Virus record (IMG/VR): IMGVR_UViG_2908572912_000003
DNA length: 38,820 nt
Origin: a virus
Taxonomy: Duplodnaviria; Heunggongvirae; Uroviricota; Caudoviricetes
Strand: one strand, 5' to 3'
Below are positions 34,967-38,820 of this stretch, piece after piece; position 1 is the first letter of the stretch, and every line of letters begins with the position of its first letter. The notes under the pieces were generated by a model, which worked only from the letters and a program-made list of their open reading frames with translations, ran no database searches and had not been told where the DNA came from. The position numbers were made by a program, and so were the translations under genes.

Positions 34967-35740
34967 TCAAAAATTAGGTGAGTAACGGACCGGGGACATA
35001 GCTCCTTTTTTTCTTAATTCATCTGGTATTTTTTTCCCAAGATAAAGATTTGCTATTTCAGGTGGGGCTTCTCGACCTTCAAAACCATAGCGAGAACTTT
35101 GTGTTGCCTCAAAGTCAGGATCCTCGTCCCAGTATTTCATCGTAGGGAAATTTTCACGTGTTGATTTGAGCCATTTATCAGCAATAAAAACCCCTCGAAC
35201 GATGCCCCTTACAGTGGCAAGAATGACTTCTGCTTGACTGGCGCGCGAGGCATTGATGCGCCAGCTAAATCGAACCGCATCATAAAGCTCTGAATCCTTT
35301 GCACTTCTGTTAACGGAAATCATTAATGCTTTATGATGAAATGTTATGGTTTCGGGTTGATATGTTGCTATCAATTCTTTGACATGCGCGGCGCCGAATT
35401 CATTGCTGCCAGCACCATTCATGATATTCGTTAACCCAGGGTAGGCATCAATAAGTGCTGCTTCAACTTCGTACGCCGTCTTTTCATCAGTCATTCCATG
35501 TCGATGGATGACATGGATAACCTCAAGTCCTGCTAACCTTATTTCTCTAATTTGCTTTAGCTTGTTGCTCAGTAACTCGTCATCATCAGTCGCTGCCACT
35601 TCACCGCGCATATGGGCAAATACGCGGTTACCTTTGCCTTTCCCTACATAGAAGGTGCTTCCGTCCCTCGGATCAATCAATCGGTATACATACCAGCCAA
35701 GGTGTTCAATTACTCCAGAAGGAAACTCAGTAATATCCAT
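34967..35740 (-). CDS. GIY-YIG nuclease family protein
   Basis: N-terminal [35 protein letters not shown] motif; ATG at 35740 (the track ORF begins at an upstream TTG); 257 aa. Confidence 0.6.
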
Positions 35741-36143
35741 TTTGCAATATCTATGAATTATTTGTGAGACGTATATTAATGAACATTGCAAGGGCTCACA
35801 ACCAGTAGTGTTGAGAAAACCATCGGAGAAATGAGGCTAAGCCTTTGAATTTACAGAGTACAAAAAAGATACTTTTCCTCATAATGTGAGCTAATTTTAT
35901 GTTTCGTTTGATGATTGGACCGGTCTCGAAAACCGTAGGCACGTAGTATGCGTTAATTTATGAACAAACTACTTGTCTGCTGTTTTTCTGTCATTAGTCG
36001 TATATAGAATGATTCTCTATGCCTAACAAAGCATCACCAGTGCTAGATTACGTTGTAGTCACTGTTTAAATATCCAGATAAAACATTTCCTTCTGGGTTG
36101 AATGAGTGATAAAGTTTCACCCATTAGACCCCTTGGAGGAATT

Positions 36144-37577
36144 ATGTCTGAATTTGAAGTGTTGGCACAGCATCTGCTGAAGGAAGCCGAGGCGGAAGAA
36201 AAGCTGCGACAGGAAAATGATAAAAAGCTTATCGAGAAAGTGCTGGAAATCTATGATCAGAAGTATGTGGCTGAATTACTGAGAAAAGTCGGAAAAAATG
36301 AGTGGAGCCGTGAAACCATTAACCGCTGGATTAATGGCAAGTGTTTACCAAAATCGTTGACTTCAGTAGAAGAGTCTCTTCTGCGTAAGATGCTACCAGA
36401 ACCACCTGCAAACCATCCGGAATATGCTTTCCGCTTCATTGACTTATTTGCTGGAATTGGAGGGATACGGAAAGGTTTTGAGGCCATTGGAGGCCAGTGT
36501 GTTTTTACCAGTGAATGGAATAAAGATGCTGTGCGTACATACAAGGCCAACTGGTTTAACGATGAACAGGTGCATAAATTCAATCTCGATATTCGGGAAG
36601 TCACGCTGAGTGATAAAACCGATGTATTGGAAACGGATGCTTATGCATATATTGATGAGCATGTGCCGGATCATGATGTGCTTCTTGCGGGGTTCCCGTG
36701 CCAGCCATTTAGCCTTGCTGGTGTTAGTAAGAAAAACTCACTTGGTCGTGCGCATGGTTTTGAATGTGAAGCACAAGGAACACTTTTTTTTGACGTGGCA
36801 CGTATTATACGAGCAAAAAAACCGGCAATTTTTGTGCTGGAAAATGTCAAAAATCTGAAGAGCCATGATAAGGGTAAAACTTTCAAAGTCATTATGGAGA
36901 CCCTTGACGAGCTGGGCTACGAAGTTGCCGATGCTGCAGAAATGGGAAAAAACGATCCAAAGATTATCGATGGGAAGCATTTTTTGCCTCAGCATCGTGA
37001 ACGCATTGTTCTGGTCGGATTTAGACGAGATCTGAATATTCACAAGGGGTTTACCTTGCGTGATATCAGTCGTTTTTATCCGGAACACCGCCCATCATTT
37101 GGTGAATTGCTGGAGCCTGTAGTCGACAGTAAATATATACTTACGCCAAAACTATGGGAGTACCTTTATAACTACGCCAAAAAGCATGCAGCCAAGGGGA
37201 ATGGTTTTGGCTTTGGGTTGGTCAATCCTGAGAATAAGGAAAGCATTGCACGCACACTTTCTGCCAGATATCACAAAGACGGATCAGAAATTCTTATTGA
37301 TCGTGGTTGGGATATGGCAACGGGAGAGGCTGACTTTATGAATGAGAGTAACCAGGCTCGTCGACCACGCAGGCTGACTCCCCGAGAGTGCGCACGCCTT
37401 ATGGGGTTTGAAAAACCTGGAGGGAAACCATTCCGTATTCCGGTTTCAGATACTCAGTCATATCGGCAGTTCGGTAACTCCGTTGTGGTGCCAGTATTTG
37501 AAGCCGTTGCCAGACTTCTGGAACCCTATATCCTCAAAGCTGTTTCTGCTGATGCTGGTAAGACTGGGCAGCCTTGA
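36144..37577 (+). CDS. ecoRIIM: DNA cytosine-5 methyltransferase, M.EcoRII/Dcm type (CCWGG)
   Basis: Motif [14 protein letters not shown] catalytic motif ([10 protein letters not shown]), ENV motif (FVLENVKNL); closely resembles recalled Dcm/M.EcoRII; ATG at 36144 with GGAGGA upstream (the track ORF starts 42 nt earlier). Confidence 0.9.
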
Positions 37578-37611
37578 GAACACCTCCCGGCCTTTTAAGC
37601 CGGGAGTCAGC

Positions 37612-38820
37612 CTATGATAGTTCAGTGTAAAGTTCTATCAGCTCAGTAATGAATGCTCCGAGCGTTATTAATTCTTCTCTAACTGCTTCTGGGTATTTTT
37701 TATGTAAAGTTGATGGTACAACGAGTCTGACACCCGCATCTTTCATTTCTCGGTATTGTGCTGAAGAAACACCTTCTTGCAGCGTAAATAAATGTACCTG
37801 ATGGATTTTATCTGCTTCATTCAGTATCTGACGCCAGCGATCTTTGCAGGTGGTCTTTACTGCCAGCATACGTAAGTTTTCTACAGGAAATTCAGCGTTA
37901 TGATATGCCTCTGCTGAAGGAAACAGGAAATCTGGTTTTTTATTACCTTCAGTAACTGCCTGAGTGGAGAAATGCCGTAGTCCGTGCTCGATAAAAAGCT
38001 TCTCTAGGTGAAGTTCAAGTGATTTACCTGCCCTTGATTTACGTCGATTACTGACAGAGTTGGCTAATGCAATAAACTCATCTACAGAATCGAACCCTTT
38101 CTTAATAATATCAAGAACATGTAATTCCTCGACGAGTAGAAAAATATCATACTCGACACGCCGACGGTCAATCAGTTGCTCATCTGGATCCTTGGAGTTT
38201 TTAGCATAATGGCCAGCAGCATATTGAATAATTTCGTTTCCAGAAGGAAAACGCTTCTTCCAGTCTTCAGGAATAACATATTTATGATTTACTGGAGTTT
38301 GCTGAAGAGACAATCCGCCCAAAATTTGTCCGGCAGGGCCGGAAATTAGGGTTCCAGGTATGATTTCGCCAATAGCAGACTCGATGATATCCTCTTCATC
38401 GGGATTGACGCAGACCCATATATCTACCTCGGAACAGTCAGTGTTCTGTTCGTTTAACCTGAAAGCAAGAATTGTGAGGGCTCCTGTATTTTCAGGGTTC
38501 TGTAATGGACTTCCTCTCCCCCAGCGCGTAATTCTTTTTTCGTTTCGGGTCTTACCAAAATAACGGTTGTTGTAATAAATTGCGCGTGCTTGGGTATCAG
38601 GGCAATCATGGGATGATACATGCGCAGTAAGGAAGACTGAAGGGTTCAGTTCGCGAGTATGATTGATAGATGGAAAAAGCTTTTCAACGATATTTGAGGG
38701 GATATAAAGTCCGACCTGATGGCCACCTGTTGCGCCTGTGTCGTTTGCAGAAAGGCGTTTGATGTAGATAAAGTAATTCCCGCTTGCGATATCAAGCAGC
38801 CAGTTATGAAAAACCGACAT
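37612..38820 (-). CDS. ecoRIIR: Type II restriction endonuclease EcoRII
   Basis: 402 aa starting MSVFHNWLLDIASGNYFIYIKRLSANDTGATGGHQVGLYIPS..., near-identical over long stretches to recalled R.EcoRII; convergent with the methyltransferase; the start codon is the last three bases of the window. Confidence 0.9.
   Translation of the reverse strand: MSVFHNWLLDIASGNYFIYIKRLSANDTGATGGHQVGLYIPSNIVEKLFPSINHTRELNPSVFLTAHVSSHDCPDTQARAIYYNNRYFGKTRNEKRITRWGRGSPLQNPENTGALTILAFRLNEQNTDCSEVDIWVCVNPDEEDIIESAIGEIIPGTLISGPAGQILGGLSLQQTPVNHKYVIPEDWKKRFPSGNEIIQYAAGHYAKNSKDPDEQLIDRRRVEYDIFLLVEELHVLDIIKKGFDSVDEFIALANSVSNRRKSRAGKSLELHLEKLFIEHGLRHFSTQAVTEGNKKPDFLFPSAEAYHNAEFPVENLRMLAVKTTCKDRWRQILNEADKIHQVHLFTLQEGVSSAQYREMKDAGVRLVVPSTLHKKYPEAVREELITLGAFITELIELYTELS

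Follow-up and report, generated by a model that had tools for sequence, protein, structure and literature searches.

Gene layout of the block

The stretch of DNA considered here (the window) is the whole 38,820-nucleotide record IMGVR_UViG_2908572912_000003 of a virus of the Caudoviricetes. This study concerns the block at its right end, positions 34,967 to 38,820, which a first-pass annotation, made from the sequence alone, had described as a GIY-YIG nuclease gene beside a complete EcoRII restriction-modification (R-M) pair. Three substantial open reading frames (ORFs) lie between 34.9 and 38.8 kb, and they are indeed the three genes of that description, in the same arrangement. The GIY-YIG gene (34967-35740, minus strand) encodes 257 amino acids (aa) from an ATG at 35740. 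Beside it lie the gene of a cytosine-5 methyltransferase of the EcoRII type, called M (36144-37577, plus strand, 477 aa), and that of an EcoRII-type endonuclease, called R (37612-38820, minus strand, 402 aa), whose product combines an N-terminal domain for effector binding with a C-terminal catalytic one.

For the GIY-YIG gene, the longest ORF extends over 34967-35791 (minus strand) and begins with a TTG; the ATG at 35740 is the start used in the RefSeq relatives and in the crystallised protein. The longest ORF of M covers 36102-37577, and a GGAGG lies 5 nt upstream of the ATG at 36144, which is the likely start and gives the same 477 aa as in RefSeq and in M.EcoRII. R begins with an ATG that coincides with the window's three final bases. 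In relatives and in plasmid EcoRII, this codon is preceded, two codons upstream, by another in-frame ATG, the classical 404-aa start, whose place would be 6 nt beyond the window end. The R gene is intact in the relatives whichever start is used, and both of its Pfam domains, EcoRII-N and EcoRII-C, are complete within the window, in line with the earlier view of a full-length gene starting at the window's end.

With the corrected starts, the GIY-YIG gene and M are divergently arranged around an intergenic region of 403 bp (35741-36143), which agrees with the distance of about 400 bp given in the first-pass annotation. Promoter-like matches in this region were no commoner than in shuffled sequences, and no credible ORF for an extra small gene was found between the two genes. 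M and R are convergent across a 34-nt spacer that contains a GC-rich hairpin (37584-37606), with a stem of 8-10 bp and folding energies of -16.3 kcal/mol on the plus strand and -20.0 kcal/mol on the minus strand (z about -2.5). This hairpin is a candidate bidirectional terminator, and it is absent from the output of a simple terminator scan. A stem-loop located 3' of the GIY-YIG stop codon (34908-34946, minus strand) folds with -20.6 kcal/mol (z -4.1), an energy reached by 0 of 200 shuffles, and is likely to be a terminator. Over positions 34400-38820, the counts of the promoter and terminator scan equalled the shuffled expectation, and the Rfam scan of the whole window gave nothing in 34.4-38.8 kb.

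Identity of the nuclease and of the EcoRII-type pair

The GIY-YIG protein matched the PADLOC profile PDLC04031 (PD-T4-3) with an E value of 3.5e-140, residues 1-256 aligning to profile positions 1-255 of 256, and it also matched phrog_5356 in the PHROGs collection. Among the PDB sequences, 9U75 was matched at 1.3e-171, with 6 differences in 257 residues (about 98% identity), and likewise 9U8D; the protein is also close to 9U7U and 9U7Z. These four entries are CMoRE of E. coli (Escherichia coli) O157:H7 and APEC O1 (Liu et al., 2026, PMC12923530). The copy of O157:H7 EC4115 is 98% identical to the window protein. Pfam recognises the LEM-3-like GIY-YIG domain alone, and the relatives are labelled 'LEM-3-like GIY-YIG domain-containing protein' in RefSeq.

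Every residue named in the CMoRE study (PMC12923530) is conserved in the window protein. In fact, the tyrosines Y17, Y19 and Y31 of the GIYxY-YIG motif are all kept, as are R80, V92, L96 and Y127, which include residues of the oligomer interface. The acidic loop reads D52-D53-D54-E55, the same positions being DDDD in 9U75 and DDDE in 9U7U, and the C-terminal half aligns to 9U75 without gaps, Y127 included. On these grounds we assign the protein to CMoRE/PD-T4-3, a published family of type IV restriction enzymes. The first-pass annotation had correctly seen that a further region follows the GIY-YIG domain; since translation starts at 35740, however, this region has about 130 residues instead of 170, and it is not uncharacterised, structures and assays having been published in 2026 (PMC12923530). 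The domain search proposed for it leads to the CMoRE sensor domain for 5-hydroxymethylcytosine (5hmC) and glucosyl-5hmC (5ghmC). The suggestion of an additional defence nuclease is thus borne out by the assignment to PD-T4-3/CMoRE, and the protein did not fall into a housekeeping family of repair nucleases.

PD-T4-3 was first found in E. coli ECOR68. CMoRE is a tetramer that binds and cuts DNA containing 5hmC or glucosyl-5hmC and acts neither on C nor on 5-methylcytosine (5mC) DNA; cleavage takes place on both strands at CN11/N9G, leaves 2-nt 3' overhangs and requires two modified sites (PMC12923530). According to the same study, a four-residue acidic loop autoinhibits the GIY-YIG domain, and the C-terminal domain has a new fold and binds 5hmC near Y127. 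The single gene is sufficient for about 10^5-fold protection against T2, T4 and T6, which is achieved by direct defence and not by abortive infection (PMC12923530). Moreover, PD-T4-3 was active against Tevenvirinae in a native clinical isolate (PMC12409345), and a distant homologue is modification-dependent (PMC12366544). The activity of CMoRE was demonstrated with homologues 98% and about 88% identical to the window protein. From this literature and the high identity, we infer that the window allele cleaves 5hmC and 5ghmC DNA and protects against T-even phages.

M was matched by the Pfam families DNA_methylase (4.7e-78) and DNA_meth_N (7.1e-27; an N-terminal domain which in M.EcoRII acts as the fused repressor) and by the NCBIfam model PRK10458 (927 bits), and the motifs FAGIGG, PCQ, ENV, QHRER and GNSV (motifs I, IV, VI, VIII and X) are all there. 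The aa identity to plasmid M.EcoRII is 91% overall and 96% across residues 251-400, the stretch most likely to hold the target-recognition domain; that to K-12 Dcm is 68.6%. R was matched by EcoRII-N (PF09217, 3.9e-61, positions 5-152 of 154) and EcoRII-C (PF09019, 2.1e-71, positions 1-165 of 165), as well as by PDB 1NA6 (E 4.3e-242, residues 1-401 aligned), and is 87% identical in aa sequence to plasmid R.EcoRII. Its catalytic PD...K motif is intact and identical to that of the plasmid enzyme, being formed, in the 402-aa numbering, by PDF at 296-298 (D297) and KTTCKDRW at 322-329 (K322). In the classical EcoRII numbering, we take the catalytic residues to be D299 and K324. Judged by these matches, the R-M pair is an EcoRII-family type II system and not Dcm. 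M is predicted to methylate CCWGG, and the same specificity, which is that of EcoRII-type (type IIE) systems, may be expected of the pair, given its 87-91% identity to the type enzymes; on the same grounds, C5 methylation of the inner cytosine would prevent cleavage.

M.EcoRII autoregulates its gene by means of a fused repressor domain (PMC12707154). In the presence of Dcm, cells are spared post-segregational killing by EcoRII, and lambda too is protected from EcoRII (PMC4924334). Together, these two studies suggest that E. coli can readily acquire and lose the EcoRII system and that it mainly restricts DNA coming from hosts without Dcm-type methylation.

The first-pass annotation had remarked that no vsr-like gene follows M and had concluded that the pair is an acquired R-M island. 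When the window was searched by tblastn with K-12 Vsr, no Vsr-like sequence was found (best E 0.69), and the stop codon of M is followed, 34 nt on, by the convergent R ORF with no overlapping vsr. The separate dcm-vsr locus that was to be looked for was found directly in strain A29, a carrier of the block, where yedJ and yedA flank dcm and the vsr that overlaps it, 0.7 Mb from the block. Related carriers were searched with a chimeric query, in which half of the R-M pair was joined to K-12 vsr-dcm. This query matched at least two places in 57 of 57 block-bearing chromosomes among the matches listed, and a query made of the block only matched one place in A29; this implies that all of these 57 chromosomes have retained a separate dcm-vsr locus. 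The presence of this locus in carriers argues that the R-M pair was acquired by a host in which CCWGG is already methylated. The conclusion of an acquired island is further supported by the greater likeness of M to M.EcoRII than to Dcm, by the lack of vsr and by the position of the block in prophage and attachment-site DNA. Thus, M is not the sole Dcm-like gene of these carriers. Nor is R interrupted past the window in the relatives.

Distribution, attachment relic and neighbouring elements

Among 5426 complete E. coli genomes, 243 carry the three-gene block, with an identity of about 99%. About 600 further E. coli records have CMoRE but not the R-M pair (an estimate obtained from 1022 matching records minus 245 full-length ones and about 150 at 60-90% identity), and in these the match extends up to window position 35935-35951. 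The sampled rows of the 60-90% identity class were EcoRII pairs on plasmids, without CMoRE, and matched from window position 36062. The fact that each occurs without the other indicates that CMoRE is a system independent of the EcoRII pair. To the left of the block lies a variable neighbour, which may be the gene of an acyltransferase, pinE or a helix-turn-helix gene. In FREC5 and A29, the near-identical chromosomes examined, the 3' end of the tmRNA gene ssrA is located 235 bp beyond the R start codon.

The block is internal in a 43,680-bp circular record of AH02 (L003, NZ_CP081704.1) and in the equivalent record of CT01 (NZ_CP081794.1). This record, deposited as a plasmid, is a complete circular copy of a closely related phage that is present also in the chromosome and whose integrase, of the dusA type, adjoins a dusA fragment. 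The block lies in it between dinI and the acyltransferase gene and is flanked by degenerate ssrA-like cores at 19432-19456 and 23595-23619. The internal position in a circular phage record indicates that the block can travel inside a phage genome, and the circular copy in AH02 suggests spontaneous excision and a past switch of the integration module.

On the left side of the GIY-YIG gene, a degenerate attachment (att) core had been reported at a distance of 50 bp. We found this core at 34889-34914, with 52 bp between it and the stop codon of the GIY-YIG gene and a match of 22/27 to the ssrA 3' end; it ranks third of 774 window tiles, behind two tiles that cover the ssrA fragment at 7787-7809. 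The similarity is not limited to the core, as about 70 nt before it resemble the phage arm at the true ssrA junction of a relative. The whole junction (34820-34914) is made up of a phage-arm-like stretch ending in the palindrome CCAATCATGATTGG, followed by the degenerate ssrA 3' end, and it can be aligned both to the true R-ssrA junction of FREC5 and to the copies in the AH02 phage. By these alignments, the degenerate core is a true relic of an attachment junction at ssrA.

To the right of position 34906, the window continues with the sequence that follows the pinE stop codon in e14-like prophages. This pin-downstream hairpin sequence (AACCGCAG...CTGCGGTT, then GGCTGGTGAA) is present in degenerate copies on both sides of CMoRE, at 34906-34950 and at about 35930-35956. 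The second copy matches the one at 34909-34935 in 22 of 27 positions and lies where the similarity to CMoRE-only loci ends. Of 5426 E. coli genomes, 5013 contain the hairpin half-unit, the median being 3 places per genome; K-12 has 3. Because the pin-downstream sequence begins at 34906 and the hairpin half is generic, the core is a fusion point of the att junction with a pin-downstream segment and not a clean att site, and only 34820-34905 can be called att-derived. For the same generic occurrence of the hairpin half, we rejected a unit of about 80 nt (palindrome, ssrA-like core and hairpin) as a repeated att site bracketing each cassette; the accretion of cassettes is put forward as a hypothesis. 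The pin-downstream hairpin sequence may serve as a terminator, or it may be a hot spot for recombination at the ends of prophages. Sequence of this hairpin type is also present at 19385-19485 of the AH02 record.

Taken as a whole, the window is a tandem array of mobile elements at ssrA, consisting of a satellite, a prophage and the defence block, and not a single element. A P4-like satellite (1-7787) contains ash, the derepression protein, delta, psu and a P4-type integrase (6394-7596). Directly to the right of this integrase lies an exact ssrA fragment (7787-7809, minus strand; ssrA positions 334-356, blastn 23/23), which marks the boundary between the satellite and a prophage that ends at the relic junction or at the defence block. 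To the right of the fragment are a DarT-NADAR pair (7938-9254) and a phage integrase (9287-10456); head and tail genes occupy about 14.8-33.1 kb, and an acyltransferase gene of the O-acetylase type is found at 33348-34415 (minus strand).

The acyltransferase gene has a GC content of 0.35, and its product matches Acyl_transf_3 and the PHROG O-acetyltransferase / O-antigen acetylase families. It is placed between a tail-fibre assembly gene and the relic att junction and is likely a serotype-converting moron; other prophages with the same defence block have pinE in its place. At the other end of the prophage, between the ssrA fragment and the phage integrase, a DarT-family ADP-ribosyltransferase (7938-8561, plus strand; Pfam DarT, 3e-24) and a DarT1-associated NADAR antitoxin (8565-9254, plus strand; 1.4e-89) form what we classify, by their family matches, as a DarTG1-type toxin-antitoxin/defence pair. 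A 2.1 kb insertion (24570-26698) is located between the tape-measure and DNA circularisation genes, and the AH02 and FREC5 relatives are without it. On its minus strand it contains an IS4-family transposase (24758-25876), and on its plus strand an ORF of 245 aa (25953-26690) with a lipoprotein-like signal (LLGGC) and no family match.

In the satellite, the Rfam matches above gathering scores fall at 798-1038 (minus strand) and comprise C4 antisense RNA, isrK and c4 a1/b1 targets, that is, the immunity-RNA region of a P4-like satellite; they are the only Rfam matches in the window. A 743-aa ORF (4137-6368, minus strand; GC 0.33-0.36) lies between psu and the P4-type integrase, a known P4 defence hot spot. 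It had no match in Pfam, NCBIfam, PHROGs, PADLOC or the PDB sequences. By eye, its C-terminal part shows a zinc-ribbon-like CxxC...CxxC followed by a D...ExK-like motif (DIDVF...CECK), and a copy 99.9% identical, annotated as hypothetical, lies next to ssrA in E. coli ECZP248. Its product may be a defence nuclease that has not yet been described, and of all the items in the window this ORF is probably the most novel.

Interpretation and relation to known systems

We regard it as very probable that the block consists of two independent, already characterised anti-phage systems, which an E. coli prophage carries as cargo at its ssrA-proximal end. The identity and intactness of the genes, their conserved residues, their order and their distribution across genomes were all observed directly. 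In the mechanism that we propose, CMoRE's C-terminal domain would bind 5hmC or glucosyl-5hmC and its GIY-YIG domain would cut both strands at a set distance, so that the DNA of T-even phages would be destroyed, and the acidic loop would keep the enzyme off ordinary and 5mC DNA. M would produce C(5mC)WGG and probably repress its own promoter by means of its N-terminal domain, and R would need to have a further site bound by its N-terminal effector domain before it cuts unmethylated CCWGG. Since CMoRE ignores 5mC, it would be compatible with EcoRII in one cell. Furthermore, EcoRII would be unable to act on hmC-substituted DNA, which is the target of CMoRE, and the two systems would thus give complementary coverage.

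Some points weigh against this interpretation. EcoRII gives little protection in a dcm+ host or against phages grown on dcm+ E. coli (PMC4924334). Between the R-M proteins and the type enzymes, 9-13% of the residues are different, so that the specificity of the pair for CCWGG is a prediction, and the activity of both CMoRE and the R-M pair in the source strain is likewise predicted, from the literature and from identity. A megablast search of the isolated phage genomes in the phage collection did not find the block. Finally, in the sampled rows the chromosomal EcoRII variant (at least 98.5% nucleotide identity) was always beside CMoRE. This last observation would also fit a single integrated system made up of the three genes, in which CMoRE is coupled to the EcoRII pair, for instance as a back-up nuclease under the control of the methyltransferase-repressor from a shared divergent promoter region. 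CMoRE and M do share the 403-bp intergenic region, and M.EcoRII is a known autorepressor (PMC12707154). Nevertheless, CMoRE is sufficient alone in heterologous hosts, and both solo CMoRE, in about 600 records, and solo EcoRII, on plasmids, are found. Moreover, the similarity to these two kinds of solo loci breaks at different points of the intergenic region (35935-35951 and 36062), which indicates that two cassettes were joined there, and shared descent would be expected to give such a linkage, at about 99% identity, in the 243 genomes. We therefore consider a coupled system very unlikely.

A free-standing homing endonuclease that spreads its own cassette, which the first-pass annotation had allowed as a homing-type nuclease, appears less probable still. 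GIY-YIG domains are common in homing endonucleases, the CMoRE gene occurs in several different prophage contexts, and a weak match to phrog_314 'homing endonuclease' was obtained (E 0.0021). Against these stands the identity of about 98% to a modification-dependent enzyme without strict sequence specificity. The protein gave no match to the DNA-binding modules typical of homing enzymes, as the GIY-YIG domain alone matches Pfam and the C-terminus is the CMoRE sensor domain, and the movement of the gene between contexts can be explained by recombination at prophage ends. The least credible possibility, to which we give almost no weight, is that the GIY-YIG protein stands in for Vsr and nicks the T:G mismatches derived from deamination of the 5mC made by the adjacent M. 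It would account for the lack of vsr after M and for the vicinity of a nuclease gene to an m5C methyltransferase gene, and the closest structural relative of the CMoRE GIY-YIG domain is in fact the repair nuclease UvrC. However, CMoRE is inactive on ordinary or 5mC DNA, it is mostly found without an adjacent methyltransferase, and the host genomes keep dcm-vsr. Both the homing function and the replacement of Vsr are contradicted by the published biochemistry of CMoRE and by its distribution.

As to how the cassettes came to lie between the relic and the live ssrA core, a tentative scenario, which is possible but in our opinion rather unlikely, can be put forward. CMoRE and the EcoRII pair could be separate, integrase-less cassettes that accumulated at ssrA by successive site-specific integrations and decay of related prophages, and that were then captured by a neighbouring prophage when it used for its excision not the relic core at 34889-34914 but the intact ssrA core on the outer side. 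If this were true, such a capture would be a cis-mobilisable route for loading defence cargo into phage genomes, as in the AH02 circular phage.

No component of the block is new, as all the families have been described and experimentally characterised, and the arrangement as prophage-end cargo is familiar. Beyond correct annotation, the finding is of little importance: the RefSeq label 'LEM-3-like GIY-YIG' should read CMoRE/PD-T4-3, and the adjacent pair should be named an EcoRII-family R-M system and not Dcm. The locus is, all the same, a natural example of a modification-dependent nuclease beside a modification-blocked one, by which phages with unmodified and with hypermodified cytosine would be covered, and it shows the exchange of defence cargo at prophage ends by the tmRNA gene. 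It is also a possible test case for the contribution of EcoRII in hosts whose Dcm already methylates CCWGG and for the capture of att-proximal cargo into phage genomes.

In comparison with the known CMoRE/PD-T4-3 proteins, that of the window has the same length of 257 aa and the same single-gene 'type I' architecture. It also shares the motif, the acidic loop, the interface residues and Y127, with about 98% identity to the O157:H7 protein, and in many genomes the gene occupies the same prophage-end site downstream of pinE. One of the six substitutions with respect to 9U75 falls in the acidic loop, where the window protein is like that of APEC O1. A difference from published CMoRE lies in the context, as the window gene has a relic ssrA att junction on one side and an EcoRII R-M pair on the other, a setting on which the paper is silent.

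With plasmid EcoRII (PDB 1NA6, 3HQF, 3HQG), the pair shares the two-domain endonuclease, the repressor-type N-terminal domain on M, the convergent order with a spacer of about 33-34 nt, and the protein lengths (402/404 and 477 aa). It differs in having about 80% nucleotide identity and a chromosomal or prophage site next to ssrA instead of IS-flanked plasmid segments. M and K-12 Dcm belong to the same NCBIfam subfamily, PRK10458, and presumably have the same CCWGG specificity; M is, however, only 68.6% identical to Dcm, has no overlapping vsr, is not located at yedJ/yedA and is paired with an endonuclease.

In e14, mcrA, which we take to be a type IV enzyme, presumably occupies the slot after pinE, like CMoRE. 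More generally, the block resembles the cargo of prophage and satellite ends and of tRNA/tmRNA hot spots, for example in P2 and P4, where defence genes fill the interval from the last tail-fibre or invertase genes to the attachment site and are swapped between otherwise similar prophages. From such cargo it shows no difference in kind, and what is specific to this window is the pairing of CMoRE with an EcoRII-type system and the relic att junction between phage and cargo.

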